A stretch of 34,082 nucleotides of DNA from the IMG/VR virus record IMGVR_UViG_3300045988_014597, positions 1-34,082 of that record. One strand, written 5' to 3'. The position numbers were made by a program, and so were the translations under genes. The first letter of the stretch is position 1; each line of letters opens with the position of its first letter. The stretch is from a virus. Its lineage: Duplodnaviria; Heunggongvirae; Uroviricota; Caudoviricetes. This document shows, piece after piece, positions 913 through 33,054 of the stretch. The notes beneath the pieces were generated by a model, which did not search any database, was not told where the DNA came from, and saw nothing but the letters and a program-made list of their open reading frames with translations.

Positions 913-3331
913 TACCGCTAGCTTGATAGTACGAGTATCATCGACCGGCGTCGATAAAACCACATCCCAACTGAACGGGCTTACTAAGGCGGCGGGGGCG
1001 GCCGCCGCTGCCGTTGTCAGCCTGGAAACCGCCAAGCAGGTGTTCAGTGCGCTGGTGGCATCCCAGCGAAACTTCGATAAGCTGAACTCTGGCCTCATCA
1101 CGATGACCGGGAGCGCCGAGAATGCCGCTAAGGCTTTCAGCGTCCTGCAACAGTTCGCAAAAGAGACACCGTACGGGCTTAACCAGGCCGTAGAAGGGTT
1201 TACCAAGCTCGTGGCGCTGGGTCTCAACCCCAGCAAAGAGGCGTTAATCTCCTACGGCAACACTGCCGCGGCGATGGGCAAGGACCTTAATCAGATGATT
1301 GAGGCCGTAGCGGACGCCAGTACCTTTGAATTTGAGCGTCTGAAAGAGTTTGGTATCAAGTCTTCCCAACAGGCGGATACAGTTTCGTTCACGTTCCGCG
1401 GCGTAACAACCACGGTTAAAAAGAACTCCGAAGAGATTCAGAAATACCTGCTAAATATCGGTAACACTGATTTCGCCGGGGCGATGGAAACGCGCTCGAA
1501 GACCTTAGATGGTCAGTTATCGAGCCTGGCGGACTCCTTCGATGGCCTTGTTCTTGCCGTAGCGCAATCCGGTTTTGGCGACGCGGTAGGTGCGCAAGCG
1601 GCAACGGCGGAAGATGCTATCACGGCACTCACCGACGCTATCGCGTCTAATGAGATCGCCGCCACGCTCCAGGATTGGGTGACACTGTTCAATGAATCGT
1701 TCAAGTTTATTTCTGATGCCTTGAATGACCTGGCATATGACACTGAGAACAAATCCACAGATATGTCAGACTCGCTGGGAACTATCCCGGACGCTATCCG
1801 AGAGTGGCTGCCTGACATTCAGCAGACATTCCACGAGGTTATTGCGTGGTTCCAGCGCATTGACGACTACGCAGTAGCATTAGGTCAGACCCTTGCCGAT
1901 GTGTTTGACCCGAGCAAAACGGCGGCGCTCACATTTAAAAACCTGACCGCGGAGGCTGACGCAGCATACACTGCCAGTATAAAACGCGCAGAGGCCGAAT
2001 CACAGGCCATTACCAACAGGTCTAAGCAGCGTAAGAAAGAAATTGAGGAACAGCGCAAGCAGTACGACGAGCGCAAGAAGCAAGAAATTGACCTAGCCAG
2101 CCTTGTTAACGGAAAGGGCGGAAAGGGTGGAACTGGTGGGGCTGGAAGCACCAACGACAAAGACGCGAAAGCCGCCGCTAAGAAAGCGGAGCAATTGCGT
2201 AAACAGGCGCAAGATTATCTCGATACTCTGGCCCGCCAGAACAACGACGAGATAAAGGCTATTGACGCGCAAGAACAACAGAAACTTAAGGAGGCCGCAA
2301 AATATCGGAAAGAAGGGGCACTAACCGCCGAAGAATATGAAAAGGCAAAAACAGCGATAGTTCTTCAATACGGGCAAAAACGGCAAGAAGCTCTCGACAA
2401 AGAATTAGCCGAGGAGCAGAAAAAACTGCAACAAGGCGTAGCGGTGCTGGCGTCAATAGACCCTGTCGCTAACCTACAGCTTGAGCGGCAGAAGAGACTT
2501 GCAGTTATAGAGGAGTATGAGGCCCAAGAAAACTCAATACATGAAGTCGCGTTGCAGGCACGGGCGGAACTGGACAAGCAATATAACGATGGGCTGGCTG
2601 CCGCAGCTGAGGAGCGTTTCCGCAACCAGTCCGAGTGGAACAATATGCTTATGGATTCCCTCGACGCGGTGGGTGCTTCCGCGTCCAGCTCCATAGTCGG
2701 ACTTATTAATGGTACTCAGACCGCTAGCGAAGCAATGGCAAACCTCGGCAACGCAATCCTGTCATCGGTCGTTTCAGGGCTAACACAGATGGGGGTGGAG
2801 TACCTGAAAAACATGATTATAGGCCAAACGGCATCCGCGGCGACTATAGCGACAGCATCGGCTACCGGCGCGGCGATTGCTGCAGCGTATGCCCCCGCCG
2901 CGGCGATGGCTTCTCTGGCGTCATTTGGGGCTAACAGTGTTCCCGCTATGTCGGGCATCACAACCACGGTGGCGAGTACCCAAGCGTTGGCCTTAACTGG
3001 ATTTCGCGAACAGGGCGGGCAAATGAACGCGGGCGGCAGCTATCTTGTTGGCGAACGCGGCCCTGAGATTATCAGGATGCCAGGGGCCGGGCGCGCGGTG
3101 AACGCAAGCCAAACACGACAACAGTTAAATGGCAACAGTAGCAGAAATGGCGGTGATAACGTGACAATCGTCAACAACACCACCGGACGCGTTGATTCCG
3201 CCGTAACAGAACGTGATGACGAAGGGCGTTTACGTATTATAATCAGTGAAACAGTAGCGTCGCAGTTACAGGACAACAACTCACCGATTTCTAAAGCCCG
3301 CCGCTCTACTCGCGGTCGGCCGGGGTATTAA
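905..3331 (+). CDS. Tail tape measure protein
   Basis: Protein of about 800 aa, Ala/Gln/Glu/Lys-rich with coiled-coil character and a Gly-rich stretch (GKGGKGGTGGAG). Sits between chaperone and tail-tip genes. ATG at 905 preferred over the TTG at 890 used by the ORF track. Confidence 0.85.
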   Translation: MADTASLIVRVSSTGVDKTTSQLNGLTKAAGAAAAAVVSLETAKQVFSALVASQRNFDKLNSGLITMTGSAENAAKAFSVLQQFAKETPYGLNQAVEGFTKLVALGLNPSKEALISYGNTAAAMGKDLNQMIEAVADASTFEFERLKEFGIKSSQQADTVSFTFRGVTTTVKKNSEEIQKYLLNIGNTDFAGAMETRSKTLDGQLSSLADSFDGLVLAVAQSGFGDAVGAQAATAEDAITALTDAIASNEIAATLQDWVTLFNESFKFISDALNDLAYDTENKSTDMSDSLGTIPDAIREWLPDIQQTFHEVIAWFQRIDDYAVALGQTLADVFDPSKTAALTFKNLTAEADAAYTASIKRAEAESQAITNRSKQRKKEIEEQRKQYDERKKQEIDLASLVNGKGGKGGTGGAGSTNDKDAKAAAKKAEQLRKQAQDYLDTLARQNNDEIKAIDAQEQQKLKEAAKYRKEGALTAEEYEKAKTAIVLQYGQKRQEALDKELAEEQKKLQQGVAVLASIDPVANLQLERQKRLAVIEEYEAQENSIHEVALQARAELDKQYNDGLAAAAEERFRNQSEWNNMLMDSLDAVGASASSSIVGLINGTQTASEAMANLGNAILSSVVSGLTQMGVEYLKNMIIGQTASAATIATASATGAAIAAAYAPAAAMASLASFGANSVPAMSGITTTVASTQALALTGFREQGGQMNAGGSYLVGERGPEIIRMPGAGRAVNASQTRQQLNGNSSRNGGDNVTIVNNTTGRVDSAVTERDDEGRLRIIISETVASQLQDNNSPISKARRSTRGRPGY

Positions 3332-3334
3332 ACT

Positions 3335-3832
3335 ATGTCTTCTTTAAGATTCCCTATGTCCCTTCGTCCGATAGTGTCGAAGGGGTACTCCCAGACCAGG
3401 GGGAGTAATATCTGGCGCACCGAGGTTCAGGGCGGATTACCTCGTCAGGGGCGAGACACGTACTTTGAACCGGTGCCGATTAGCGTGACGCTCGTCGTAT
3501 CGTCTCTCGGTCGCCAGGCTTTCTATAGCTTCCTGAACAACATCGACGGCGGGGCGTCCTCGTTTATCATGCCGCATGATACGGGTATGGGTATCGAGGA
3601 CCACCAGGTACTTATCACGTCAACGATTAGTGACAGCACCGACGACGGCAAGAACTGGGTAATCTCGTTCACAGCAACAGCAGAACGCACAGCGATTCAG
3701 GAAGACACATGTCTTACGAAGAATCTTCCCGATTTGTTCGGCTGCTACGGCGATTGCTTAGGCGATTTCCTTAAAGCATACGGAGCTGCACAATCAACGT
3801 TTCCACGAATTTGGGACCCAATGCAATCATGA
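3335..3832 (+). CDS. Minor tail protein (lambda gpM-like / distal tail protein), 165 aa
   Basis: First gene after the tape measure in a lambda-like H-M-L-K-J order. Assigned by synteny and size. Confidence 0.55.
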   Translation: MSSLRFPMSLRPIVSKGYSQTRGSNIWRTEVQGGLPRQGRDTYFEPVPISVTLVVSSLGRQAFYSFLNNIDGGASSFIMPHDTGMGIEDHQVLITSTISDSTDDGKNWVISFTATAERTAIQEDTCLTKNLPDLFGCYGDCLGDFLKAYGAAQSTFPRIWDPMQS

Positions 3833-3942
3833 GCAGAAGCAAAGAATTAGTTAACGCCCATATGCGAGGGTGGTTTAATTATTGCCGTCTGCATAGCGAT
3901 ATAGAACGCGCATACCGCAGCGTTAAGAGAGCATATAAATGA
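3829..3942 (+). CDS. Small hypothetical protein, 37 aa
   Basis: ATG overlaps the upstream stop (ATGA) and its TGA overlaps the downstream ATG at 3939 (ATGA), suggesting translational coupling. Too short for the ORF track. Confidence 0.3.
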   Translation: MSRSKELVNAHMRGWFNYCRLHSDIERAYRSVKRAYK

Positions 3943-4454
3943 GCCAGGAATCAGTAGAAGCCGCCTATCGCCGTAAGCTGGCCTCGAATCCCGACGGCGA
4001 GATGGATTACATCACGTTGCAAATCAGCCACCCGTTGCTATCGAAGACGTACTATCTTGTGCGCGGGCTACAGGAACTCACGGCAACACTGGAGACGGGC
4101 GAAACAATCACGTTCGAACCAACCCCAATGGAAGCGTCGGGGGCGGCTAACAACAGTGATATGGACCAGACGACGACGTTTACTCTGCCGGATATTCTCA
4201 ATCAACTTGATGATGAGATGGATAAAATCCCTATGAGTAACACCGAGTTGCCTAAGTTCGTCTTCCGCCGTTACGTCAGCACCGACCTGTCTTATCCGGC
4301 TGACGGCCCGGTCGTGTACGAGTTACAGGCCATCAACCAGGAGAAAGGCGAGTTCTCCGCGGATGTCGGCACACCTATGCTGAACCAACGAAGCACTGGT
4401 ATACTGATGACACCTAAAGAGATACCGTTATTACGCGGCCTGTTGACCACATGA
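3939..4454 (+). CDS. Minor tail protein (lambda gpL-like), 171 aa
   Basis: Position in the tail-tip cluster; stop overlaps the next start. Confidence 0.55.
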   Translation: MSQESVEAAYRRKLASNPDGEMDYITLQISHPLLSKTYYLVRGLQELTATLETGETITFEPTPMEASGAANNSDMDQTTTFTLPDILNQLDDEMDKIPMSNTELPKFVFRRYVSTDLSYPADGPVVYELQAINQEKGEFSADVGTPMLNQRSTGILMTPKEIPLLRGLLTT

Positions 4455-4816
4455 ATATTAACGACTACACGGGCATACCTTACGACTTTCGTAAACGCAA
4501 TTGCTGGCATCACGTGCGCATTGTACGCGCGGATGCCGGGTTAGATACCCCGGCGTTCGATGTTACAAGCCCGACGGCAATTAACGAAGCGTTTGACGAA
4601 GGCCACCGTGACACGAAGGGGCTTACAAAAATAGATAAGCCTGAAAACTTCTGTGCGGTGCTTATGGGGTATCGCCGTGGTGGTCGTATCGTGTGGCACG
4701 CGGGAGTTTACTTCGACGGGATGGTGAGCCATTGCGAGCTTGCATCCCGTCAAGTACGGCTTGACAGGCTGGCGGACCTCAGAGACACGTACACGGAGAT
4801 TGAATTTTGGCGATAA
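4451..4816 (+). CDS. Tail-tip NlpC/P60-type peptidase (lambda gpK-like), 121 aa
   Basis: Cys/His pair typical of NlpC/P60 (RNCWHH ... WHAGVYFDGMVSHC). Sits between the L-like and J-like genes. Confidence 0.55.
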   Translation: MNINDYTGIPYDFRKRNCWHHVRIVRADAGLDTPAFDVTSPTAINEAFDEGHRDTKGLTKIDKPENFCAVLMGYRRGGRIVWHAGVYFDGMVSHCELASRQVRLDRLADLRDTYTEIEFWR

Positions 4817-7362
4817 TCCTGCACTACACGCGAAACGCTGATGGCGCTTTCGACCGTACAAAACACGTCGGGATGCCGATGGAGTTTGTTGTTAACCGTA
4901 TCCCTGACGGCGTGCCTGTGCGCGTCTACCTCGGTGAGATTGGTGATGATACTGACGTAACGGACGACTTCGATGCGCTTAAAGACGATGACGCGGTGTA
5001 CCATATTATTGAGGGTGCCGGTGGTGGGATAGGTAACGCCATTGGTAAGGTATTTGGTTTTATCCTTAAGCCAATTGCCAAGTTATTTGGCCTGAACAGG
5101 TCCACTAACGCCAACTACACGGCGATTAACAACCAGACAACGTCACCGAATAACAGCCTCACAGACCGCTCCAATAAGCCGCGCCCTTACGAGCGCTCCT
5201 ATGACATCTGCGGGACTGTACAGACAATCCCTAATGACCTGATGCAGACGTATAAGGCGTTCAACTCCACAGGCGCTTTGCTGGAGTATTCGTACTATGA
5301 CGCAGGGCGCGGGCATCTGCATATTGAGGCTGATGGCGTCACAGAGGGCGACACCCTGATAAGCGACATCACAGGCTCCTCTGTTGCCGTGTATGCGCCG
5401 TATACGTCGCCGAACAACACCACATCTCCGCAACTACAAATCGGTGACGTCATTGACCAGAAACTCTATGTGACATACTCCAACGACGACGTTGACGGTA
5501 TTGTATTGAAAGCGCCAAACGACATCGGGGCTAACCCAAGCGCCGGTGGCACCGCCAAACGTATTTCAACCACCGGCTACATCTACGACCCGTCAGGCGA
5601 CTCCGCTTTTTCTGAGTTTCTTAGCGTCGGTGATGTCGCGGTGCTGAGCAACTTTGATGTTAAGGACGTCACTAACCTGAACGGCTCGTTTGAGGTTTTA
5701 TATGTCGACGACTTTGAGGTTCGGTTGTACGTCGGGGATATAGGTAACTGGGGCAACCTTAATAGCGGAGAGACTTACGCACTTACAGAGCGTTCAGATA
5801 CGTTTATAGGCCCAAGCAACACGTACGATGTGTCTCTTACAGACTGGTACTACATGGTTCGCGGAGAGGTTGACCGGGTGCTAGCTAATGTTGCCGGGCA
5901 GAACGGCCTCTACAAATACGACGGCGGCTATAACCGCACCAGCGTAACCGTAGAACTCCAGTACCAGATGATTGACTCCCAACGTAACCCGTTGAGCGAT
6001 ATCTACACGGTACAGGCCACAATTACAGGCAATAATACTGACTACGTCGGCACGTCCATTTATGGGCAGTTACCGACAGCATCGCGCTTCCGCGCCCGTA
6101 TGCGCCGTGTGACTAATTTCGACAAGGACTACGACGGTACCGTAAGTGACGAGATAACCTTCATCAACCTGTATGGGCAGTCTCTTGACACAACCCCACA
6201 CTACGGCAACCGAACTACCGTACATTGCGCCCGTAAACAGACGCCGCGGGCCGCGAGTATCGATAACCCGGAACTGCGCATGATTGCAACCGAGATGTGC
6301 TACAAATATCTCGGTAATGGGGTATTCGATACGGTAATGACTCCGAACACGCAGGCGGTGCAGTCACTAATCAGACTGGCACGCGACCCCGCAGTTGGTA
6401 ATCTGGAACTGACAACGGCAAATATGGACAAGTTACTTTCCGTGCAGGAAGAGATTGAGTCCTATTTTGGTAGCGAATTAGCGGGGCAGTTCTGCTACAC
6501 GTTCGACGACTACGACACCACGATGCAGGACATCGTTCAGACTATAGCGGAAGCCGTGTTCTGCACCGCGTACCGTAAAGGCGCGGATATTATGCTGCGA
6601 TTCGACCGTCCGGTTGCTGGGCCTGAGATGGTGTTCACCCACCGCAGCAAAACGACCGGTACGGAGAAATGGACCCGCACGTTCAACGATTCGACAACCT
6701 ACGATAGCCTGTCATTCTCGTACATTGACCCTGATACTAACGTACAGGAAACGATTTATATCCCGGAAGAGCTAGGCGCAAATACGGAGGAATACGAATC
6801 AAAGGGCGTGCGCAACTATCAGCAGGCGTACTGGCTGGCGTGGCGTCGCTACCAACGCAATGCGTTAAGTAAAGTTGTCGTAGAGTTCGAAGCTACGGAA
6901 GAAGGCGCTCTCGCTACCCCGGGTGGCGTAATCAGCGTGGTTAAAGGTTCACGTATCGCACCCCAGGATGGTTATGTTGTTGCCGTTAATGGGCTTACAC
7001 TTACGCTGTCCCAGCCTGTTACGTTTACTCCCGGGGACGACCACGCCATCATCCTCAAGAAGCGCGACGGCTCTGTGCAGAGTATCTCTGTTATAAAAGG
7101 AAGCCATGACCGCGAGGTTATTATGCTATCTGCGCCGGAGGAGGCAATCTACACGGGGAATAGCGCACTAAAAACTGAGTTTTCATTCGGCAACGAAGCA
7201 AGGCATAATGCTCAGAAGATAGTTGTTTCTTCAATCGACCCTGGCGACGACCGCACGGTCAAGATTACTGGCTACAACTATGACGACGGATTCTATAAAT
7301 ACGACGGCGTCGCACCTTTAGGTCGCGGTTTCTCCGACGGATTCAGCAATGGTTTTAATTAA
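4807..7362 (+). CDS. Tail tip / host specificity protein (gpJ-like central fibre), 851 aa
   Basis: Large ORF after the K-like gene. Start uncertain: TTG at 4807 with GGAG upstream, or an internal ATG near 4873. Confidence 0.6.
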   Translation: MAIILHYTRNADGAFDRTKHVGMPMEFVVNRIPDGVPVRVYLGEIGDDTDVTDDFDALKDDDAVYHIIEGAGGGIGNAIGKVFGFILKPIAKLFGLNRSTNANYTAINNQTTSPNNSLTDRSNKPRPYERSYDICGTVQTIPNDLMQTYKAFNSTGALLEYSYYDAGRGHLHIEADGVTEGDTLISDITGSSVAVYAPYTSPNNTTSPQLQIGDVIDQKLYVTYSNDDVDGIVLKAPNDIGANPSAGGTAKRISTTGYIYDPSGDSAFSEFLSVGDVAVLSNFDVKDVTNLNGSFEVLYVDDFEVRLYVGDIGNWGNLNSGETYALTERSDTFIGPSNTYDVSLTDWYYMVRGEVDRVLANVAGQNGLYKYDGGYNRTSVTVELQYQMIDSQRNPLSDIYTVQATITGNNTDYVGTSIYGQLPTASRFRARMRRVTNFDKDYDGTVSDEITFINLYGQSLDTTPHYGNRTTVHCARKQTPRAASIDNPELRMIATEMCYKYLGNGVFDTVMTPNTQAVQSLIRLARDPAVGNLELTTANMDKLLSVQEEIESYFGSELAGQFCYTFDDYDTTMQDIVQTIAEAVFCTAYRKGADIMLRFDRPVAGPEMVFTHRSKTTGTEKWTRTFNDSTTYDSLSFSYIDPDTNVQETIYIPEELGANTEEYESKGVRNYQQAYWLAWRRYQRNALSKVVVEFEATEEGALATPGGVISVVKGSRIAPQDGYVVAVNGLTLTLSQPVTFTPGDDHAIILKKRDGSVQSISVIKGSHDREVIMLSAPEEAIYTGNSALKTEFSFGNEARHNAQKIVVSSIDPGDDRTVKITGYNYDDGFYKYDGVAPLGRGFSDGFSNGFN

Positions 7363-7374
7363 AGAGGACTCTAT

Positions 7375-9255
7375 ATGTCAAGCGGATGTGGTGACGTTTT
7401 AAGCCTGGCGGATTTACAAACCGCCAAGAAACACCAGATTTTCGAGGCCGAGGTTATCACGGGTAAGTCCGGTGGGGTTGCTGGTGGTGCTGATATTGAT
7501 TACGCGACCAATGCGGTTACGGGTCAGACGCAGAAGACACTCCCGGCGATACTGCGCGATACTGGGTTTTCTCCGGTATCGTGGGATTTTTCCACAGGCG
7601 GAACGTTAACAGTTAATGACCGCGACAAAGTGGTTTATGACCCTGTAAGCAAAACGTGGTATTCATACACCGGTACACTGCCGGTGACCGTTCCAGCTGG
7701 GTTTAACCCCGTGGGCAGTGCTGACTGGAAACCCCAGACGGACCCAGATTTGAGGGAAGAACTAGCGGATACCAGTAGTATTGTTAATGGTGATGCTTTA
7801 GTGGGAGTGCGCCAGCCTTTTGCCGGTGCTGTTTCCCGTACTCAGCATGATAAAAATAAAGAATATGTATCTGTTACTGATTTCATCACGCCGGGTGAGT
7901 CAGACTCTGCGGATAAGACTTACGCGTTCCAAGCGGCTGTCGACTCTCTTACATCTGCGGGTGGTGAAATTCACATTCCAAATGGTGGATTTTGGGTAGT
8001 AGAGGGTATTGTAACTCTTAATAAATCAGTAACTATAAGAGGGTCAGGGTCTACCCCAACTACGTTAATTAAAAAAAGTAACACAAATTCCACGTTTTTT
8101 AATGTGGCGGAGGAGTCATGCTCCATCCGCGACCTACGATTGATAGGTGCTGCGGGTTCTACCGGTGGTTTCGCGATCACAACGGCGACAAACGCAAGTC
8201 GTCTCCATATTGATAACGTGCAGATTCGAGCTACGCACAGTGGTATAAATCTTAAAGCAAATTTATTTTCGTTGTCACATATAGAAATCGTGGACATTAA
8301 CTCACCCGGTGGGGTAGGAATTGAGGTAGACCAATCCGGCGTAGTAGACGGGGTTGGCCTCATCACATCAACTGTTATACAGAACGGCGATGGTGTAGAA
8401 CCCTACGCAGGCATATTTCTAAGGCACGCTATCGGCATCCTTATATCTGATACTCAGTTGATGCAGGCAGGTAAAGCGATGGTAATGCAGCCCGGAGCTA
8501 CTCAGGGTGTCAGCTCTATAAAAATAGTTAATACATATTTTGATACATCAGATGATGGTGGGCTTTTTATTGATAATACCTCCGGCGGGGATATCTCCCG
8601 TATAACAATCGCCGATTCTTGGTTAGCAAGCAGTAAAAACAGTTCCGGGTTAGTTATTCAGGCCGGGTCCAATATCCGTGGCCTCAAAGTATCCTCTTGC
8701 GAATTCTATGACAGCATTACCGGATTAAACGTAGGTGATAATACTGTAGTGCAAAATTTAGACGTAAGTGATTGTGTGTTTTCTGGGCACACAGCCGCGG
8801 ATGTTTCAATAGGCACTAACGTTTCAAATTTCTCGTTCACTAATTGTCGTTCTGGTGCCCTAGGTGGTTTCGCCGCTTCCCCATTTGGGTTATATATAAA
8901 CCCTGGCTGCGGCAACTTTAGCGTAATAGGTAATGAATTCCATGCTATAAACGATGCATCATACCCCTCTAGCGGGGTACTTATCGCCGATAACCGCCAA
9001 TGGGGCTTCGCTCAGGTTACATATGACCCTCCCGTAATCGCTCCAGTAACAAGTATAGAGAGCACAATAGGTGTACCGGGGGCCAGGCCAGGCGATGTAG
9101 TTGATATATCGTTTACCACAGATTTACAGGGGGTTCTTCTCCTTGGTTGGGTATCTGGTAACGATGTTGTGTCGTTCAGGATGTTTAATAGCACAGGTGC
9201 TAATAGGGATTTAGGGGCAGGAATAATTAAGGCAAGAATAAAAAGAATGTCATAA
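7375..9255 (+). CDS. Tailspike / tail fibre with pectate-lyase-like right-handed beta-helix (putative depolymerase), 626 aa
   Basis: N-terminal region of about 130 aa followed by repetitive beta-helix-like segments (IRDLRLIG, NVQIRATHSG, SSCEFYDS, SDCVFSGHT). The 3' two thirds is visibly AT-richer than neighbours. Confidence 0.7.
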   Translation: MSSGCGDVLSLADLQTAKKHQIFEAEVITGKSGGVAGGADIDYATNAVTGQTQKTLPAILRDTGFSPVSWDFSTGGTLTVNDRDKVVYDPVSKTWYSYTGTLPVTVPAGFNPVGSADWKPQTDPDLREELADTSSIVNGDALVGVRQPFAGAVSRTQHDKNKEYVSVTDFITPGESDSADKTYAFQAAVDSLTSAGGEIHIPNGGFWVVEGIVTLNKSVTIRGSGSTPTTLIKKSNTNSTFFNVAEESCSIRDLRLIGAAGSTGGFAITTATNASRLHIDNVQIRATHSGINLKANLFSLSHIEIVDINSPGGVGIEVDQSGVVDGVGLITSTVIQNGDGVEPYAGIFLRHAIGILISDTQLMQAGKAMVMQPGATQGVSSIKIVNTYFDTSDDGGLFIDNTSGGDISRITIADSWLASSKNSSGLVIQAGSNIRGLKVSSCEFYDSITGLNVGDNTVVQNLDVSDCVFSGHTAADVSIGTNVSNFSFTNCRSGALGGFAASPFGLYINPGCGNFSVIGNEFHAINDASYPSSGVLIADNRQWGFAQVTYDPPVIAPVTSIESTIGVPGARPGDVVDISFTTDLQGVLLLGWVSGNDVVSFRMFNSTGANRDLGAGIIKARIKRMS

Positions 9256-9260
9256 AACTA

Positions 9261-9285
9261 AGGCCCCGTTTGGGGCCTTTTCTCT
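9261..9285. terminator. Bidirectional intrinsic terminator between convergent tail and replication modules
   Basis: AGGCCCC-GTTT-GGGGCCT hairpin flanked by an A-run upstream and a T-run downstream. Confidence 0.7.
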
Positions 9286-9424
9286 ACTCTTCAGATAACT
9301 TCTCCAGTACAAACGCCAGTTGCGCATTAGCGGCATCCCTCTGTTGCCGTAACCGCAGAACCTCTTCTTCAAGCTCCTTGATACGTTTTTGCAATGCTGG
9401 AATCGGGGCTATGATGTTCATCAT
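9284..9424 (-). CDS. Small coiled-coil hypothetical protein, 46 aa
   Basis: Reverse-strand ORF (MMNIIAPIPALQKRIKELEEEV...) whose ATG overlaps the stop of the upstream gene (ATGA). Too short for the ORF track. Confidence 0.3.
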   Translation of the reverse strand: MMNIIAPIPALQKRIKELEEEVLRLRQQRDAANAQLAFVLEKLSEE

Positions 9425-9612
9425 TCGAACTCCATAAAATCACCATTTACCGACTCTGTGTAAATTAGTCCTGTTCTATCATCGTAGCACGCACCCCAAC
9501 GATTGGCAGTGTTATCCATCACCACGAATTGCCCATCACCTTTGTACTCCGCAGCATAATAATTACCTTCATCGAAAACACCTATAGTAGAACTTACGCA
9601 AAACAGTTTCAT
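9421..9612 (-). CDS. Hypothetical protein, 63 aa
   Basis: ORF in the reverse-strand operon, contiguous with the helicase gene. Confidence 0.45.
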   Translation of the reverse strand: MKLFCVSSTIGVFDEGNYYAAEYKGDGQFVVMDNTANRWGACYDDRTGLIYTESVNGDFMEFE

Positions 9613-11033
9613 TTCTTACCTCGTCTCTTCATGTAATTAAGCAATTCTTCCTGTACTGATTTCTTCTCGTCGGTACGCGCGGCAACAACCTCGTCCAGCG
9701 TGTCTTTAGCGACGATGTGATAGAGGAACACCGGGCGCTCGTGGCCTGCCTGTTTCTGGCGTACGGGACCTATACGCTCGACAACCTGCAAATAGTGCTC
9801 AAGGTTCCAGCCTTGCGAGATGAACGCCAGATGATGCCCGCCGTCCTGTAAATTCAAACCATGGCCCGCTGACGCAGGATGTACGCATAGGATTTCGATT
9901 TCTCCACGGTTCCACGCTTCCATCTGCTTATTACCCTTAGCGCCTTTGGCGAATGCCTGGGCCTGCGGGAATCTCTTAAGGATGCGCTCCAGTTCGTGCT
10001 TAAACTGATAAGCCACAAGCAACGGCGCACCCTGTAACTCCTCGACAATGGACTCAAGCGCATCCAGTTTCGTGTCGTGCACTTTCTCCCAGTCTTTCGT
10101 TGCTTCTCCATCAGGCCCCGACACATACACGGCACCAGAAGCAATCTGCAGACACTTCGACGTCTTCGCCGCCGCGTTAGCCGCTTCAACTTCCCCGCTC
10201 TCGAGTTCCGCGAATAGCTTCTCCTCCATATCGATGTACGCCTGACGCGCTTTCTTCGGCAGGTCGATTTCAACCGGTACAATAATCGGCGCTTCACAGC
10301 CGAACCATTCGGCGGCGTCAATCGTGAGACTAATGTCCTTCATCTTCTGATGAATTTCATTATCTGCGCCCGGGCGTGCATGGTATTCACGGGCCATCGC
10401 TGACTTACCTTTCTGTACCGAGTTGAACCAGCGGTCGGTGAATGCTGTGTACGATGAACCAAGTCGCTCGCCTGCGTCGATAAACCAGTTCTGCCCCCAC
10501 AAGTCCTTGAGGCCGTTCGGTGATGGTGTACCTGTCAGGTTAATGAACCGCTTAACCTTACCGAACGCCACTTTACTAAGCGCCTTTGCCCGCTTGCTGC
10601 CGCCTGAACGGCTGCGGAATGATTTCAGCTTCGTGCTTTCATCGGCAACAATAACTGTAAAAGGCCAGTCGTCTTTGCCGTAGTAGTCAATCAGCCACTC
10701 GATAACTTCGTAGTTGGTACAAATCACATTGGCGTCAGACTCCAGCGCCGCGATACGGCGCTTCTCTGAACCTGTCGCATCTACGACATTCAGACACGGG
10801 AATTGCCATTTCTCTTGTTCTGCTGGCCATGTGCCGGACGCAACGCGCAGCGGGGCGAGTATTAACACGCGGTCATCGTCCGTAAGTTGCCCATTGCGAA
10901 ACAGGCGGTTGAGTACCCACATTGTCGACGAGGTCTTGCCGCCGCCCATACCGCACCAGATATTGCAACGTGGGTGCTGTAGTATAAACGACGTCATTAT
11001 TTTCTGGTACTCGCGCCTTTGAAACTTAGACAT
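9609..11033 (-). CDS. SNF2/DEAD-like ATP-dependent helicase, 474 aa
   Basis: Walker A CGMGGGKTS and a DExx box (VIVADEST), plus a C-terminal helicase region. Confidence 0.8.
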   Translation of the reverse strand: MSKFQRREYQKIMTSFILQHPRCNIWCGMGGGKTSSTMWVLNRLFRNGQLTDDDRVLILAPLRVASGTWPAEQEKWQFPCLNVVDATGSEKRRIAALESDANVICTNYEVIEWLIDYYGKDDWPFTVIVADESTKLKSFRSRSGGSKRAKALSKVAFGKVKRFINLTGTPSPNGLKDLWGQNWFIDAGERLGSSYTAFTDRWFNSVQKGKSAMAREYHARPGADNEIHQKMKDISLTIDAAEWFGCEAPIIVPVEIDLPKKARQAYIDMEEKLFAELESGEVEAANAAAKTSKCLQIASGAVYVSGPDGEATKDWEKVHDTKLDALESIVEELQGAPLLVAYQFKHELERILKRFPQAQAFAKGAKGNKQMEAWNRGEIEILCVHPASAGHGLNLQDGGHHLAFISQGWNLEHYLQVVERIGPVRQKQAGHERPVFLYHIVAKDTLDEVVAARTDEKKSVQEELLNYMKRRGKK

Positions 11034-11709
11034 GATTAGCCTCGTAAACTGCTTTTGCGAAACCCCGCGGAGTAAGGCTGCGGATTGTTTTTGTCCGCAC
11101 TGATTTACCGCCTAATTTATTGTGTTGGTCTGAGTACCCATCACCAACGGCAACACATGATTTAACGGGCATAACAAAACCGTTACCAGCCCAAATACAT
11201 GTCTTCTTAGGGTACGCGTCCCGAGGTTTTATGTATTCAGGGAACATTGGATGCGTGTCGTCTTCCGGTAAATACCCGCCGTATTCGTACGGATTGAATA
11301 CATAATCAGGCTTACGCCATAAAGACGAAAGAACGCTAACCGGGTTCTCAATCATATAAGGTACGTTGTACTTTTTAGCAAGACGCGCCGCCACTTTGCA
11401 TGTAATCACGGCCTCTACCTGAAACGTTGGATTCTTCTTCCGTTTCGTTTCGAAATGCGCAGCACCACTAACGGCTAAATCTGTGCACGGAGGGAACGCG
11501 AAAATAATATCCGGCGCAACGTCGAAGTCGAATTTATTATCAATCCACGCGTTTATATAGTGGATGTTCTCGTGTTCAACTTTCGAACCCAATCGCGCGT
11601 AGTCGCCGTGGTCGGCACCGTCGTAGTTGAAACAATAGCAAGTATGGCCCGCTTCTGCCCACGGTTGGGCCATGAGGCCCGAACCGTCGAACAATGACCA
11701 GATAATCAT
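11026..11709 (-). CDS. Compact DNA (cytosine-5) methyltransferase-like protein, 227 aa
   Basis: C5-methyltransferase signature order: motif I LFDGSG, PC motif FAFPPCTDLAVSG, ENV-like motif MIENP, C-terminal RSLTPRGFAKAV resembling motif IX. Very short, so the target-recognition domain must be minimal. Confidence 0.6.
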   Translation of the reverse strand: MIIWSLFDGSGLMAQPWAEAGHTCYCFNYDGADHGDYARLGSKVEHENIHYINAWIDNKFDFDVAPDIIFAFPPCTDLAVSGAAHFETKRKKNPTFQVEAVITCKVAARLAKKYNVPYMIENPVSVLSSLWRKPDYVFNPYEYGGYLPEDDTHPMFPEYIKPRDAYPKKTCIWAGNGFVMPVKSCVAVGDGYSDQHNKLGGKSVRTKTIRSLTPRGFAKAVYEANHV

Positions 11710-11897
11710 TTCAACACCAGAACTAACTCTTTACGTCCAAACGCCGTAACGTTACCGGTTACATCTTCGATAACCAGTTTACCGTTCGACTCGACGTATA
11801 CCGTATCAACGGCAACAGGACGACGTGTCTTAACGTTGAAAATCATGTCACCCGGTACGATGTCACGTGCTGGTTTGCGGTCGTATTCGTGTTTCAT
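11706..11897 (-). CDS. Hypothetical protein, 63 aa
   Basis: ORF directly downstream of a family A promoter, AAGGA-type RBS; stop overlaps the next start. Confidence 0.5.
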   Translation of the reverse strand: MKHEYDRKPARDIVPGDMIFNVKTRRPVAVDTVYVESNGKLVIEDVTGNVTAFGRKELVLVLK

Positions 11898-11908
11898 TTC
11901 TCAATTCC

Positions 11909-12214
11909 TTATATTGTTGGTGTATGACTACTATAATAGTTCGCTATTAGGTCGTCAACCTGTTTAAACGACCCGACGACAAAAACATTTGCGCCACGTT
12001 TGCGCATACGCTCATGTTCCCTCAGCTGGTGAGGGTCTGGCTTCGTATTTTCGTCTTTCTTAACCTCGACGAACCAGACGATGCCTCCGGGGAGAATTAC
12101 CAGGAGGTCAGGGGCCCCCACTCTATTTTCGTACGACAATTTGCGTACGAGGCCACCGAGGGCCTCAAATCGCTCTTTTGCGTATTTCTGGATGCGCCCC
12201 TCAGGCGTACTCAT
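11909..12214 (-). CDS. VRR-NUC domain nuclease (PD-(D/E)xK), about 101 aa
   Basis: GAPDLLVILPGG...FVEVKK pattern. ATG at 12214 preferred over the upstream alternative start used by the ORF track. Confidence 0.65.
   Translation of the reverse strand: MSTPEGRIQKYAKERFEALGGLVRKLSYENRVGAPDLLVILPGGIVWFVEVKKDENTKPDPHQLREHERMRKRGANVFVVGSFKQVDDLIANYYSSHTPTI
11929..11957 (-). promoter_or_regulatory. Family A sigma70-like promoter (TTGACG-N17-TATAGT) with embedded palindrome AATAG-N4-CTATT
   Basis: Reverse strand reads TTGACGACCTAATAGCGAACTATTATAGT; -35 at 11952-11957, -10 at 11929-11934, palindrome at 11934-11947. Confidence 0.6.
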
Positions 12215-16925: not shown

Positions 16926-17396
16926 CTATTCTTCTTCGAAATACTTGTTCTTGATTGCTGTCAGGCGTTCCAGATATTCAGCCAGGTCTTCGTCTTTAAT
17001 CGCGGCAATCTTCATCTTCTTACCGGTGAACTCTTCCAGCAGTTCATCGGAATCATCGCACGCGGCATCGCTTGGACCTTCGTTAATTGCATCGTCGATA
17101 GCCTGAATCTGGTCACGAAGAGACTGGTAATCGACTTCTTCTTTCTCTTCTTCCGGCTCTGGCGCAGGTTCCTCTACTTTAGCTTTACGCGGCTTGCGTT
17201 TCGGCTTCTCATCTTCCGCCGGTTTAGTATCGACGATGTCTTCACCTTCGACCGGGATTTCTTTTGTTGCTTCTTTCGCAACGGTGGTCTCGATTGTTGC
17301 GGTTTCAGCAACGACAACCTGTTTTGCACTGTTCTCGGCAATCAGTTCATGGGCAACTACGAAACGTTCCAGTAATACTAAGAATTTCTCTAACAT
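16926..17396 (-). CDS. Acidic hypothetical protein, 156 aa
   Basis: Strongly acidic central and C-terminal regions (EPAPEPEEEKEE, DDSDELLEEF). Confidence 0.55.
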   Translation of the reverse strand: MLEKFLVLLERFVVAHELIAENSAKQVVVAETATIETTVAKEATKEIPVEGEDIVDTKPAEDEKPKRKPRKAKVEEPAPEPEEEKEEVDYQSLRDQIQAIDDAINEGPSDAACDDSDELLEEFTGKKMKIAAIKDEDLAEYLERLTAIKNKYFEEE

Positions 17397-17406
17397 TTGG
17401 TTCTCT

Positions 17407-17562
17407 CCTGTTTATTTATACTTAACGGTTTTAACTAACTGGCCTGTCGCTTTGTCGAAGAAGCCAACACGATTGTTGCTTACGCGATAGCGTGCGGTTT
17501 CTTTAGTTCCAAATGCTATATCAAGGCCCAACAGAATCTTTGCTTTGCGGTTATTGGTCATT
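17407..17562 (-). CDS. Small hypothetical protein, 51 aa
   Basis: Reverse-strand ORF with a GGAGAG RBS, directly downstream of a family A promoter. Too short for the ORF track. Confidence 0.4.
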
Positions 17563-17593
17563 TTGTTTCTCTCCTCTCGTTTGGTATGGGCTA

Positions 17594-17623
17594 ACTATAA
17601 TAGCAAACTATTCATGTTGTCAA
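17594..17623 (-). promoter_or_regulatory. Family A sigma70-like promoter (TTGACA-N18-TATAGT) with embedded palindrome (T)GAATAG-N4-CTATT
   Basis: Reverse strand reads TTGACAACATGAATAGTTTGCTATTATAGT; palindrome at 17599-17612. Divergent from the HTH gene promoter. Confidence 0.6.
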
Positions 17624-17627
17624 TGGG

Positions 17628-17657
17628 CTTTTCTAAAATAATTAATATGGTACTATT
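17628..17657 (+). promoter_or_regulatory. Putative promoter of the XRE gene, with a degenerate palindrome AATAT-N4-CTATT over the -10 (TACTAT)
   Basis: TACTATTCAC at 17651-17660 matches the family B -10 and leader; the -35 is weak (CTTTTC). Confidence 0.35.
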
Positions 17658-17687
17658 CACATATCGGCTAACTAAGGAGTAATTGAC

Positions 17688-17903
17688 ATGCAACCATCTG
17701 AACTAGGCATCCGTGTAGAACAACGCCGCAAAGAACTCGGCATCTCCCAGCGCCGTCTGGCCGTCCTGGCTGGCGTTTCCCAGGGCGCAATTAACCAGCT
17801 GGCACTTGGGGTAACTCAGGACGTCCGCCCGGCGACGCTGTTCAAACTGGCGGAAGTGCTGCAAGTAGACGCCAAGTGGCTGGCGTTAGGTGAAGGGGCT
17901 TAA
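17688..17903 (+). CDS. XRE-family helix-turn-helix transcriptional regulator (Cro/CI-like), 71 aa
   Basis: LGISQRRLAVLAGVSQGAINQLALG helix-turn-helix; AAGGAG RBS; sole + strand gene inside the reverse-strand replication module. Confidence 0.85.
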   Translation: MQPSELGIRVEQRRKELGISQRRLAVLAGVSQGAINQLALGVTQDVRPATLFKLAEVLQVDAKWLALGEGA

Positions 17904-17920: not shown

Positions 17921-20188
17921 CTATTCTAAATCCTCCTCTGTCACCACCAGCATTTCATTCGGTTCGTATATTGTCTTCGGTATTTTGTTGTCCGTTATCC
18001 GGGTGTTCAGCCTGTAACGGCCCGGTATTATCTGATTGTTTTCGTCTGTTCCAGGTACAAGATACCCGGCCTCAACCATTTTCTTAATCTTCCCGCGTTC
18101 TATGGCTTCTTTGGAGTTAAACGCCTTCGCGTTGGGGTCAGACTGTGCCAGCTTATTCGCTGCGGCCACCGTGATACCTTCGTTGCCGTTGTAGGTTCCT
18201 TCGGCCAGTTCAAACGCTGCCAGTATCGTGGCCTCCGAACTGTTGACAGCGTTCTCTACGGTTTTGCGTACGTTTTCTTTACCTTCCTTTGTCAGCCCTT
18301 CTTCGCGCTCTTTCTCCTCGTCAGTTTTGAACGGTTCGAAGCCCCACGGCATTAACACAAGTGCCTTATGTGGTTCTGGCAGGTCCAGGTTTACGATTGC
18401 GCCGTATTCCTCTGTGTTACCCAGGAACTCAACCGCGCGATACTCTTTCGGCGGCGGTGCTTCGCGGAACTGTACCGACTCCAGAACCATGCCAACCGTC
18501 TTCTGCTGAGGCCCGTGCTTAAATTTCGAGTGGTATACGTTTATCTGTCGGTCGGTGGCGCGTTCGATTGTTAGTTCGACGTCAACACCAGCATACAACG
18601 CCCCACTGCCACGGGCTTTCTTTCCGCCTTTCGGTGTGTGGTGAACAACGCCTACCGCGGCTTTAGTCGCATCGCGTACTTCTTTCAGGATGGCGATAAC
18701 TTTACCCATGCCGATTGCCGTCGATGAACTGTTCTCGTCGAACTTATCAATCGTCAGGGCCAACGTCTGGTTAAGGGTGTCGAACGCAACCATGCCGATT
18801 GGTTCATCGCCAGCGGTTTCGCGCATTAGCTTAATCAGGCTTTTAAGTTTGCCGACCTCACCCATGTCGATGACATGTACGTAATCTTTACCTTCCTCGC
18901 CGTATTTAGCCGCGAGCGCGTCAATACGTGTACGCGTAGCGGCACCGCCCTCGCCGTCGATATAGAAATGGTGGCAACGCTGGGTGTCCGCCCCCGCAAA
19001 CCGGTATCCGGCGGCGCTAAGGTACATCATCCCCAGCGTATAGAATGATTTGTACGTGCCGGATTCCCCGACGATATCCCAGATACAATCCGACGGCATG
19101 TACCCTTCGACGACGAAATCAGCCTTTACCGGTTCCGGTAATTCGTCCCCCTCTGAGTCCTCGTCGTCTTCCAGGTCGTCCAGGCTGCATGAGACGGATT
19201 CACGCGCGCCCCAACCGATGGCCTCCGCGACTTCACTGAACGGCAGCCCGGTCGCATCGCACGCATATTTCCACACCTCTTTCGGCGACATGCCTTCGGT
19301 AGCCGTAATGTCGGTGTCGTGAATCATGGTCACGTTCGGCGCTTCGTATCCTTCACGCGGGAAGCACAGCAGGAAGTCGTCCGGGCGCGGGGTCGGGTCG
19401 CTGTAGTTCTCTGCGTGTTCCGGTGTAGCTGGCATCTTAAGGCCGCGTGGCGTCATGATACCGCCGTACTCAAACGCCAGTGCCTCGAACGCATCAGTAA
19501 ACGCGGTGCGCAGTTCTTCCGGTATCTGGTAATCAGATGCGCTGCTCACCTCGTAATCCGGGATGCCTTCCAGTAATTCGTCCGGGTCAATCAGGTCATT
19601 GCGACGCGACCAGATAACGGTAGAGCCGACCGGCGGCAGGTACATCGGCTGTGACAGAGTGAACCCGCTGCGGTCCGCGCCCATGCCTTTGAAGAAGTGC
19701 TCCAGCAATCCGTGGCGGGCGCGGATGATGTCACCGCCTTCGACAGGGCGGCCCAGCGGCATGACGACGCGAAAGCGCGGGGACTCGTCGGTATGTGATG
19801 CCGTGGTATAGAGGCACATCGCACGGCGGCTACGCTTAACCAGGCGCACCGCTTCCTGGTACTCTTCCGGCGTTGCGCTGTCAAAGTCCAGATACGCCAG
19901 CGATGATTTACTTACAGACGCATCACAGCGGTAAAAGAAGCCTTTACGCGCTTGCTTAAAGTCTCCAGTTTCCGGGTCTTTTACGGTGCTGTGCGTAGAG
20001 TCGCACGCGGCGGTGATATAGCCGGGTGCGGTCTTAGGGTTAATCCCGTCGCGAACGGCATCGAGCGGCTGAATTAACTCTTTCAGGCCGTCCAGGGTTG
20101 CCGTATGGGTGGTTCTGACGTTTATATCCTTTTTCTCTGCCCGCGCGTTGCGGCGGGACCACGAGTAGGATAAAATTACATCGGACAT
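17921..20188 (-). CDS. Bifunctional DNA primase/helicase (AEP primase-polymerase N-domain plus RecA-like helicase), 755 aa
   Basis: AEP-like LAYLDFDSA (DxD) and CLYTTASH motifs N-terminally; Walker A GESGTYKSF and Walker B-like MVAFDTLNQ centrally. Confidence 0.8.
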   Translation of the reverse strand: MSDVILSYSWSRRNARAEKKDINVRTTHTATLDGLKELIQPLDAVRDGINPKTAPGYITAACDSTHSTVKDPETGDFKQARKGFFYRCDASVSKSSLAYLDFDSATPEEYQEAVRLVKRSRRAMCLYTTASHTDESPRFRVVMPLGRPVEGGDIIRARHGLLEHFFKGMGADRSGFTLSQPMYLPPVGSTVIWSRRNDLIDPDELLEGIPDYEVSSASDYQIPEELRTAFTDAFEALAFEYGGIMTPRGLKMPATPEHAENYSDPTPRPDDFLLCFPREGYEAPNVTMIHDTDITATEGMSPKEVWKYACDATGLPFSEVAEAIGWGARESVSCSLDDLEDDEDSEGDELPEPVKADFVVEGYMPSDCIWDIVGESGTYKSFYTLGMMYLSAAGYRFAGADTQRCHHFYIDGEGGAATRTRIDALAAKYGEEGKDYVHVIDMGEVGKLKSLIKLMRETAGDEPIGMVAFDTLNQTLALTIDKFDENSSSTAIGMGKVIAILKEVRDATKAAVGVVHHTPKGGKKARGSGALYAGVDVELTIERATDRQINVYHSKFKHGPQQKTVGMVLESVQFREAPPPKEYRAVEFLGNTEEYGAIVNLDLPEPHKALVLMPWGFEPFKTDEEKEREEGLTKEGKENVRKTVENAVNSSEATILAAFELAEGTYNGNEGITVAAANKLAQSDPNAKAFNSKEAIERGKIKKMVEAGYLVPGTDENNQIIPGRYRLNTRITDNKIPKTIYEPNEMLVVTEEDLE

Positions 20189-20245
20189 ATTATAATTCCT
20201 TCAGCAAGTAATTTGGCCTCGGCGCCCTAACGTCGGGGCTTTCTT

Positions 20246-20695
20246 TTATTCAGCGTTTGGTACTGCAAGAGCATACACGCCATCCAGCACCTTAATCAAC
20301 AAACCTTTTTTACAAAGCCCGCGCATGGCGGTACAGACATCACCAAGATTAGTGACATCATCTTTTACCATGGCGTATACCGCACTAGGCGTAAAACGTT
20401 GTCCTTGCTGTTCAAGACATTTTCCATAGACTAATTTTTGTAACTCCGTAAGTTGGCCCTTCTCGGGAAAAGGAACGGATATAACATTGGATGGTTTCCC
20501 ACCTTTAACCCAATACAGGTACTTACTCCCATCATAAACACGGTCTATCTCCCCGAAATACCCAAGCAATGAAATCGCGGCGCTAATTGGCCCGTCGAGT
20601 TCTATTGCAGATTTAATGTCATGCAGTGACGCTCCCGGGTTCTCGGCTAATATCATATTTAACGATTTAAGAAACTCGTCTAAGTATTTATGCAT
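20246..20695 (-). CDS. Hypothetical protein, 149 aa, possibly winged-helix DNA-binding
   Basis: Second gene of the reverse-strand operon; C-terminal region resembles a winged helix. Weak assignment. Confidence 0.55.
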   Translation of the reverse strand: MHKYLDEFLKSLNMILAENPGASLHDIKSAIELDGPISAAISLLGYFGEIDRVYDGSKYLYWVKGGKPSNVISVPFPEKGQLTELQKLVYGKCLEQQGQRFTPSAVYAMVKDDVTNLGDVCTAMRGLCKKGLLIKVLDGVYALAVPNAE

Positions 20696-20831
20696 TCTTC
20701 TTAGCCTCTCTTAATTGTTTGCGATATGCATTGAAACATTCACGGCAATAACTGCGTGTGCCTTTTCTGTCATATCGTTTGAGGAATGCACCTTCTTCTT
20801 TTTCTTTCCTACACATCTGGCAAATCTTCAT
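20688..20831 (-). CDS. Small zinc-ribbon protein, 47 aa
   Basis: MKICQMCRKEKEEGAFLKRYDRKGTRSYCRECFNAYRKQLREAKKNA with two CxxC pairs; strong GAGGAG RBS; stop overlaps the downstream ATG. Confidence 0.45.
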   Translation of the reverse strand: MKICQMCRKEKEEGAFLKRYDRKGTRSYCRECFNAYRKQLREAKKNA

Positions 20832-20849
20832 CTAAATACTCCTCGGCGG

Positions 20850-20878
20850 TTGAAGTACCCAATATAATGGTACTTCAA
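20850..20878. promoter_or_regulatory. Perfect 10 bp inverted repeat flanking a TATAAT-containing core (candidate operator and bidirectional promoter core)
   Basis: TTGAAGTACC-CAATATAAT-GGTACTTCAA. Confidence 0.5.
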
Positions 20879-20889
20879 GCAAAAAGCAA
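20861..20889 (-). promoter_or_regulatory. Candidate sigma70 promoter (TTGCTT-N17-TATATT) for the reverse-strand replication operon
   Basis: Reverse strand: -35 from 20884-20889, -10 from 20861-20866. Confidence 0.4.
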
Positions 20890-20926
20890 CAACAAAGTTA
20901 CTAAGATACAAAAGATGCTACTGATA

Positions 20927-20955
20927 TTGACTTTTCACTGAAAATATGCTAAGCT
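20927..20955 (+). promoter_or_regulatory. Strong sigma70-like promoter with extended -10 (TTGACT-N17-TGC-TAAGCT), copy 1
   Basis: TTGACT at 20927-20932, TG at 20947-20948, TAAGCT at 20950-20955. Confidence 0.6.
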
Positions 20956-21037
20956 CCACCTGAGCTTGTGAAGTATGAACAAGCGACCGCGGTGCGGCAG
21001 GAGAACGGAGCGGTGCGTTAGCACTGAGTGTAGTGTC
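20927..21037 (+). repeat. Dispersed direct repeat R1 (promoter plus conserved leader), about 110 bp
   Basis: Aligns with 33971-34082. The first ~66 nt differ at 2 positions; the remainder has two single-base indels and more substitutions. Confidence 0.85.
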
Positions 21038-21155
21038 GCTGCCCGCATTCGGAAGGCCCATAGTCTATTGTTAATCCAGCCTAAATACCCAAGTCACTGA
21101 TAATTAAAAGTTTCTATAGTTGCCGTGAGCAATGTAGAGAGTACTTCACTCCGCT

Positions 21156-21177
21156 GGGGTGGGCTAACGCCCACCCC
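21156..21177 (+). other. GC-rich hairpin GGGGTGGGC-TAAC-GCCCACCCC
   Basis: Perfect 9 bp stem with a 4 nt loop. No immediate U-tract, so either a weak terminator or an RNA structural element downstream of R1. Confidence 0.4.
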
Positions 21178-33053: not shown

Positions 33054-33054
33054 T

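Follow-up and report, generated by a model that had tools for sequence, protein, structure and literature searches.

The window analyzed here (the whole 34,082-nt stretch of IMG/VR record IMGVR_UViG_3300045988_014597) is, judged by its similarity to known phages, from an uncultivated Kagunavirus-like siphovirus (Guernseyvirinae), and its tailspike gene, an open reading frame (ORF) of 626 codons at 7375..9255 on the + strand, is very probably a composite in which an anchor conserved in the genus has been joined to a horizontally exchanged β-helix receptor-binding module. A shift in base composition within the gene, homology breakpoints on both sides of its C-terminal part, and the recurrence of that C-terminal module behind other anchors and on other backbones are all observed directly, and it is the homology, not the composition, on which the module swap rests. 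In the mechanism proposed, codons 1–126 form the anchor that presumably fixes a tailspike trimer to the J-like hub of the tail tip, and codons 127–626, comprising a neck, a right-handed β-helix and a C-terminal β-sandwich, would represent the imported module. The most likely role of this module is to bind and cleave a polysaccharide (O-antigen or capsule) on the enterobacterial cell surface and so to set the host range, with cleavage of the polysaccharide carrying the virion to the membrane. Recombination would have put the module in place by way of two conserved flanks: the end of the anchor (...NPVGSADWKPQTDPDLR) and a stop codon with a terminator hairpin. The first of these shares its motif with the tailspike anchors of Gamaleyavirus and Ackermannviridae phages.

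Homology breaks, recombination joints and other carriers of the module

The N-terminal anchor (aa 1–126; 7375..7752, + strand) is conserved across the genus Kagunavirus. Queried by megablast, a set of 50,697 phage records yielded 103 matches to the gene, almost all of them Escherichia or Kagunavirus entries at roughly 80–93% identity, and every one is limited to the first ~378 nt; at the protein level the anchor matches phrog_29731, 'tail spike protein' (E 9e-50), and residues 77–112 match PF18668 (Tail_spike_N) with a score under the cut-off of that family. When positions 3000–12000 of the window were compared by blastn with eight Kagunavirus loci encoding tailspikes of 599–848 aa, similarity broke off at 7745–7755 in seven of the relatives and at 7863, past the neck, in KMB36, and it returned at 9252–9256 in all eight. 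As delimited by these alignments, the replaced unit is 7753–9252, the C-terminal 500 codons. An earlier note, made from the sequence alone, had proposed that a conserved N-terminal anchor carries a domain acquired by horizontal exchange, and had named a comparison of the N-terminus with related phages as a check; the 103 anchor-only matches, the sharp breaks on both sides and the presence of the module on other anchors and backbones bear this out. The boundary itself exists, although it lies at 7752–7755, ~30 nt upstream of the position of ~7780–7790 given in that note.

The left joint (7703..7756, + strand) is a ~55-nt conserved DNA block encoding NPVGSADWKPQTDPDLR, directly after which similarity stops. 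In alignments this block is common to the anchors of Kagunavirus, Gamaleyavirus and Ackermannviridae phages, with divergence right behind it; it corresponds to the protein motif NPVG(S/N)ADWKPQTDP(D/N)LR, and the last codons held in common at the break are CAG ACn GAC CCn GAT TTn (QTDPDL). The right joint (9253..9279, + strand) consists of the stop codon TAA and a conserved hairpin rich in guanine and cytosine (9260–9279; AAGGCCCC-loop-GGGGCCTTTT, the second arm also written GGGGCCTT), which is terminator-like in a consensus scan and stands at a convergent junction with reverse-strand genes. The left block is likely the substrate for homologous recombination on its side, and the stop codon with its hairpin likely serves as the right-side recombination flank within the genus Kagunavirus.

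The clearest co-linear counterpart of the window is L001, a divergent Kagunavirus-like contig from another sample, in which the architecture is the same and both junctions are intact. A tract nearly identical between the two (7582..9292, + strand) would mark a recent exchange: identity over 7591–9255 reaches 99.3%, with 11 mismatches and none at 7582–8075, whereas elsewhere it is 72.5% in the J-like gene, 85% over 7375–7590 and 94% downstream. Co-linearity of the whole protein with homologues in close relatives had been named in the earlier note as the finding that would speak against an exchange; the lone fully co-linear homologue is L001, which lies on a divergent backbone and therefore argues for transfer. 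A third carrier is P0012, a cluster-mate of the window protein that is ~97.5% identical to it from window residue 111 on, and whose anchor is 90–92% identical to those of PC3/PH4 (155 kb) and of the Gamaleyavirus ZQ2 (72 kb). PC3 is filed under Ackermannviridae, and P0012 would, from its anchor alone, belong to a Gamaleyavirus or Ackermannviridae backbone. Copies of the module at 97–99% identity are present on two diverged Kagunavirus backbones and one Gamaleyavirus/Ackermannviridae-type anchor, with one shared ~55-nt joint, and near-identical copies on three such backbones or anchors suggest recent spread.

More distant carriers extend the same pattern. With aa 127–626 as query, ten relatives were found among 5.8 billion proteins; in these, homology runs from the DPDLREELA neck to the final residue behind N-termini that are mutually unrelated. 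P0002–P0010 are 45–79% identical to the module and differ in their N-termini: in P0007 the module (57% identical) stands behind a P22-type head-binding domain (PF09008) in a P22-like prophage, with genes for gp7/gp20/gp16-type ejection proteins before it and an acyltransferase gene after it; P0004 belongs to another siphovirus, to which Klebsiella, Escherichia and Shigella phages of 46–48 kb are the nearest isolated relatives; P0009 lies in a Pantoea agglomerans genome; and P0005, together with P0013 (E. coli), has yet another N-terminus. A prophage tailspike of 58% identity is present in genomes of E. coli and Citrobacter braakii (WP_251362785.1, WP_250151667.1, WP_141894941.1). A representative library at 50% identity contains 29 clusters of the module family with E ≤ 1e-30 and 323 with E ≤ 1e-10, and among the matches listed the position at which the module begins in its carrier protein ranges from residue 2 to residue 646. 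A profile scan of genome contigs with the module alignment found at least four loci among the matches listed, all of them distant β-helix, and a scan of IMG/VR with the module returned distant or partial relatives only.

Some further observations concern the joints and the carriers. Across the window, L001 and L031–L038, the stems of the hairpin at the right joint are invariant and its 4-nt loops vary; the loop is GTTT in the window, L001 and fFiEco02 and AAAC in ST20 and Golestan, the two being reverse complements of each other, a pattern compatible with an inverted palindrome or with recombination inside it. Another terminator-like element, a hairpin with a 12-bp stem and a T-run at 7555–7583, lies within the anchor coding region and ends where the L001-identical tract starts (7582), which may be a coincidence. 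In L002, the P22-like prophage with the 57%-identical module, the gene after the tailspike gene is a highly AT-rich one of the Acyl_transf_3 type (guanine-plus-cytosine content, GC, 0.355; 7882–9033, minus strand), past which lies a CbtA/CbeA-type island; because this island is only ~88% identical to E. coli, the host of L002 is probably not E. coli proper.

Composition and codon usage of the module

Codons 1–126 of the tailspike gene (7375–7752) are backbone-like, with a GC of 0.529 and a GC at third codon positions (GC3) of 0.532, and codons 127–626 (7753–9255) have a GC of 0.450 and a GC3 of 0.381; for comparison, the values for the J-like gene are 0.520 and 0.603, and the GC of the whole window is 0.505. 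The differences in GC3 are significant by Fisher tests (anchor versus module, p = 0.003; J-like gene versus module, p = 3e-15), and within the gene a maximum-likelihood two-segment model places the GC3 change point after codon 127 (nt 7755), with a 2-lnL support interval of codons 105–150 and a permutation p of ~0.04. Equally AT-rich 1503-nt windows make up 4.5% of all such windows in the 34 kb and fall in three places, the module, 20.0–21.3 kb and ~32.5 kb. The profile is therefore not flat, and the impression recorded from the letters alone, of a first part composed like its neighbours and an AT-richer remainder with different codon choices, agrees with these values and with the codon-usage test.

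In that test, the module protein was back-translated using the codon frequencies of seven backbone genes nearby. Backbone codons would give the module a GC of 0.523 and a GC3 of 0.576, against 0.451 and 0.382 observed (z = −9.0); the codon usage of the anchor is not deviant in the same test (z = −1.6). Amino-acid content was accordingly rejected as the cause of the AT-richness; the shift is synonymous and not a by-product of β-helix amino acids. None of the 29 Leu codons of the module is CTG, and its shares of ATA (43% versus 18% in the backbone), AGA plus AGG (45% versus 10%) and GAT (73% versus 33%) are all raised.

The AT-rich synonymous usage looks like the unameliorated signature of a donor pool of ~43–45% GC among Gamaleyavirus and Ackermannviridae phages. 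The C-parts of the ZQ2 and PC3 tailspikes (GC 0.425–0.453, GC3 0.40–0.41) equal both their own backbones and the window module in composition. All eight Kagunavirus relatives, whose C-parts are unrelated to the module, likewise have C-parts (GC 0.42–0.476) that are AT-richer than their anchors (0.51–0.54), and an AT-rich C-part is therefore general in the genus and not special to the window phage. The simplest reading suggests that Kagunavirus phages (~51–52% GC) take receptor modules from a pool held in phages of ~43–45% GC that share the joint.

The same eight relatives, with their unrelated C-modules, can also be read as favouring another explanation, in which AT-rich codons are an intrinsic and selected trait of β-helix domains, rare codons slowing translation for co-translational folding, and owe nothing to a foreign origin. 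The tailspike of P22 contains rare-codon clusters that pause translation (PMC2565806), and the homologous modules of L002 and L003 have GC3 values (0.245 and 0.292) below those of every neighbouring gene, even in L003, whose backbone is itself AT-rich. As these two modules are AT-richer than their own surroundings, composition alone does not single out one donor. The C-parts of ZQ2 and PC3, however, match their own backbones in GC and GC3, and β-helix modules are therefore not AT-enriched as such; moreover, the shift in the window extends evenly through 1.5 kb and is not clustered, and its onset falls exactly at the homology breakpoint. Selection on codons is thus considered an unlikely cause of the shift, and it concerns the cause of the composition only, not the swap.

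Predicted structure, putative enzymatic function and receptor use

An AlphaFold2 monomer model built from an 11-sequence alignment (mean predicted local distance difference test score, pLDDT, 80.7) divides the protein into the domains introduced above. The anchor is modelled with a small β-rich core at aa ~55–120 (pLDDT 52–81). It is followed by the neck or linker (aa 127–163; 7753..7863, + strand), with which the imported module would start and which resembles the neck of the Sf6 tailspike; Sf6 structures 2vbe/7sg7 align to aa 121–170 (E 3e-8), and the monomer pLDDT is low at aa 123–161. The body of the module (aa 164–539; 7864..8991, + strand), presumed to be the glycan-binding and glycan-cleaving domain, is predicted to fold as a right-handed parallel β-helix, with pLDDT mostly 82–97 over aa ~165–540. 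The C-terminal β-sandwich (aa ~545–626; 9007..9252, + strand) has its strands at 545–625 with pLDDT 92–96 in the full model, and folded alone it is again modelled as a sandwich of six strands (pLDDT 72). This domain has no match in Pfam, and on its own it yields weak fold matches only in the PDB (E > 0.1), to the C-termini of Klebsiella phage depolymerases, a pyocin fibre and lectins. The same β-sandwich, ~75 aa long, is seen alone or in tandem in many otherwise unrelated proteins, for example as 24 matched stretches in the 3365-aa P0079.

In a Foldseek search of the PDB the top match is the Sf6 tailspike (E 4e-14), ahead of the tailspikes CBA120 TSP3 and HK620; all three are O-antigen glycosidases. 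The description of the C-terminal part as a pectate-lyase-like depolymerase, which had been offered together with a structure prediction as its check, consequently stands at the level of the fold, with O-antigen glycosidases as the nearest solved relatives, and does not extend to assigned catalytic residues. By sequence, the match to Sf6 is confined to aa 121–267, the neck and first coils (E 3e-16), and a second HMMER stretch is not significant (i-E-value 160). The profile match to AlgE4 is limited to the cap motif (E 2e-5), and PHROG contains no family over the helix body; the homologues P0005 and P0008–P0010 carry precomputed PF12708/PF13229 matches. Among homologues of 41–98% identity, the acids E304, D319, D325, E342, D390, E443, D446, D455 and D476 are invariant, as are Y344 and H351; the residues up to D446 fall in the motifs GVG(I/V)(E/R)(V/I)DQ.GV.DGVG, EPYAG, Y(F/L)D(T/S)S and EFYD. 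The invariant residues are at most candidate positions of a groove for binding or catalysis.

By analogy with the nearest solved tailspikes, the β-helix probably cleaves its enterobacterial polysaccharide enzymatically. As for the polysaccharide, serotype-converting phages carry acyltransferases that modify the O-antigen, and if the acyltransferase encoded beside the P0007 tailspike does likewise, it would hint at O-antigen as the target class. The module might instead be a non-enzymatic β-helix adhesin that binds a glycan without cleaving it. This alternative is judged improbable, as the closest relatives in structure and sequence are enzymatic (Sf6, CBA120 TSP3, HK620, Det7), many acids are invariant in the homologues, and the Kagunavirus isolates studied so far have enzymatic tailspikes (PMC11990801).

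The J-like tail tip or hub protein (851 aa; 4807..7362, + strand), encoded directly upstream of the tailspike, matches phrog_469 (E 9e-253) and, weakly, the Pfam families Phage-tail_3 and FNIII-A_GpJ. Its residues 570–832 align to positions 594–848 of the 1565-position profile of phrog_31, 'central tail fiber J', so that ~700 profile positions are still to come where the protein ends; because it ends after the hub part of this profile, it lacks the distal fibre and receptor-binding part of lambda-type J. In Kagunavirus isolates (BASEL), the tailspike gene lies directly downstream of the gene for the J-like hub, the tailspike is the single receptor-binding protein on that hub, and the O-antigen is an essential receptor on which these phages depend completely (PMC11990801). 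The idea that the phage may use two receptor-binding proteins, raised in the earlier note on account of the J-like protein, is at odds with the truncated profile match and with this literature, and a second receptor is not supported by anything in this analysis. The centre of the J-like gene (~5430–6100, aa ~208–432) is mosaic among relatives, independent of the type of tailspike module: it is 86–90% identical to ST20, KMB36 and fFiEco02, and is unaligned or 68–77% identical with L001, Golestan, Ro145c2, EM1, BUCT789 and fFiEco03.

Weight of the evidence, genome context and likeness to known systems

Vertical inheritance of the C-part, with fast divergence under diversifying selection in place of a replacement, is effectively refuted. 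Receptor-binding regions do evolve quickly, and the first 80–100 residues of the C-part are 36–45% identical to the necks of many tailspikes; past the neck, however, no similarity is detectable to the relatives' tailspikes, which also differ in length, the breaks are abrupt on both sides, within a few nt, with codon usage switching at the same point, and the module is found nearly unchanged on other anchors and backbones. A junction created by metagenome assembly, as a chimera of two phages at the conserved WKPQTDPDLR motif that several phage families share, is scarcely credible, since the identical 626-aa protein is recorded on 4 contigs and is present in several independent sources (JGI/IMG, Logan, ENA and NCBI nr, the last as DAU91358.1, 'MAG TPA: tailspike protein [Caudoviricetes sp.]'), the divergent backbone of L001 has both junctions intact, and both flanks of the cassette run into syntenic Kagunavirus genes.

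Several findings weigh against the favoured reading of an exchanged and probably enzymatic module. The window sequence comes from metagenome assembly and is known from assemblies only; among isolated phages none has this module, the best identity being 26–27%, and a blastn search of the module against 5,426 complete E. coli genomes gave no DNA match. The low GC3 of the module in L002 and L003, given above, belongs here as well. A Pfam search of the window protein found nothing above cut-off, PF12708 (Pectate_lyase_3) and PF13229 (Beta_helix) included. Matches to solved enzymes, by phmmer and by profile against PDB sequences, reach no further than the neck and the cap at the helix N-terminus, and hydrolase, lyase and epimerase chemistry are therefore not distinguishable; the catalytic residues were not assignable from an alignment of 25 sequences, which is too noisy with its heterogeneous N-termini.

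Positions 1–25000 of the window are ~90% identical at the nucleotide level, over ~70% of their length, to E. coli Kagunavirus phages (ST20, K1G, K1ind2/3, phiWAO78-1 and others), with more distant matches to hundreds of Salmonella Jerseyvirus-type phages. The local gene order, namely a DUF1833 tail protein, a 121-aa ORF labelled endopeptidase in relatives, the 851-aa J-like protein, the tailspike, two small reverse-strand ORFs and an SNF2-type helicase, is common to all eight annotated Kagunavirus relatives, with the tailspike slot directly downstream of the J-like hub gene. The first backbone gene past the cassette is a conserved 46-aa ORF (9284..9424, − strand); the annotations of ST20, KMB36, Golestan and others include its homologue, with 45–46 aa and ~90% nucleotide identity. 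Minus-strand ORFs inside the tailspike gene (e.g., 7971–8366) were rejected as spurious, since they overlap a coding frame that is conserved and folds well, and gene calling shows nothing of the kind in the tailspike range of the closely related L001.

Other features of the window lie apart from the tailspike. A 63-aa ORF (9421–9612, − strand), which has no match in PHROG, occupies a variable small-gene slot (9422–9604) between the 46-aa ORF and the helicase; this slot aligns with KMB36, Ro145c2 and EM1 and not with ST20, Golestan, fFiEco02, BUCT789, fFiEco03 or L001. Additional AT-rich stretches (GC 0.40–0.44) are found at 20000–21800, 17200–17800, 31000–31600 and 33000–34000. The largest, 20000–21800, sits between a 755-aa reverse-strand gene and forward-strand genes, combines a GC-skew switch with small ORFs clustered on the two strands, and may be a divergent control region or contain accessory genes. 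An unusually strong AT skew of 0.42–0.51 on the + strand extends over ~600 nt at 2001–2600.

Modular exchange of receptor-binding domains is already documented. In eight genera of E. coli phages, Kaguna-, Gamaleya- and Kuttervirus among them, the anchors group according to genus and the receptor-binding domains according to the serogroup of the host, and these domains have been transferred between genera, Kagunavirus included (PMC10408124). The locus is in this respect a textbook instance that leaves current understanding unchanged, and its modest novelty lies in a module subtype with no representative among isolated phages, borders resolved to a few nt, and near-identical copies on three backbones or anchors. 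It provides a base-pair-resolved natural example of host-range change in O-antigen- or capsule-dependent siphoviruses. The borders of the cassette (the ...WKPQTDPDLR joint and the stop codon with its hairpin) could be used as design rules for module swaps in a Kagunavirus chassis, such phages having been proposed as small synthetic-biology phages, and the glycan of the module, once identified, would extend the list of known serogroups and receptor-binding domains by one specificity. A bolder possibility, to which only a small weight is given, is that the module has a previously unsampled glycan specificity, perhaps with chemistry of the lyase or epimerase type, and is now spreading among gut enterobacterial phages of three families; the non-hydrolytic chemistry is raised by the fold match to the alginate epimerase AlgE4. 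If this were true, the joint and the stop codon with its hairpin would form a universal docking pair for the passage of receptor modules between sipho-, podo- and myoviruses.

Among known systems, the tailspikes of the genus itself stand closest, and those compared include the endosialidases of K1G and K1ind, the O16-specific tailspikes of BASEL Bas70–76 and the subtypes of Pas et al. (2023). The window tailspike is like these in its genomic slot, its anchor (roughly 80–93% nucleotide identity), the break after ...QTDPDLR, the 3′ stop codon with its hairpin and the AT-richer C-part, and unlike them in its C-terminal 500 aa, which are unrelated to those of any isolated phage. The best solved match, both by sequence and by Foldseek, is gp14 of Shigella phage Sf6, an endorhamnosidase (2vbe, 2vbk, 4urr, 7sg7). 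The two share the neck motif DL..LA...GDA.(I/V)GV.QP...AV.RTQHDKNKE..S..DF, a β-helix and a C-terminal β domain, but identity in the helix body is only 17–18%, with no established equivalence of the Sf6 catalytic acids, and the N-terminal domain is of the P22 head-binding type in Sf6 and a Kagunavirus anchor in the window. As no significant similarity extends across the catalytic helix body, the module is not placed among the Sf6-type endorhamnosidases. Pectin lyase-like enzymes (the AlgE4 A-module 2pyg, GH28 polygalacturonases, PL6 lyases and GH110 galactosidases) are more remote, with 10–17% identity and no catalytic sequence motif in common, and they are free cellular enzymes, not virion-bound trimers.

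The nearest parallel for the movement of the module is the receptor-binding domain shared across morphotypes by the tailspikes of the podovirus P22, the siphovirus 9NA and the myovirus Det7. Receptor-binding subtypes of Gamaleyavirus and Kuttervirus are likewise reportedly shared across phage types in the study by Pas and colleagues from 2023. The window module differs from the P22/9NA/Det7 case in its family, in near-identical copies that would reflect very recent spread, and in having no isolated carriers; it resembles that case in standing on siphovirus, Gamaleyavirus/Ackermannviridae-type (P0012) and P22 head-binding (P0007, 57%) N-termini.

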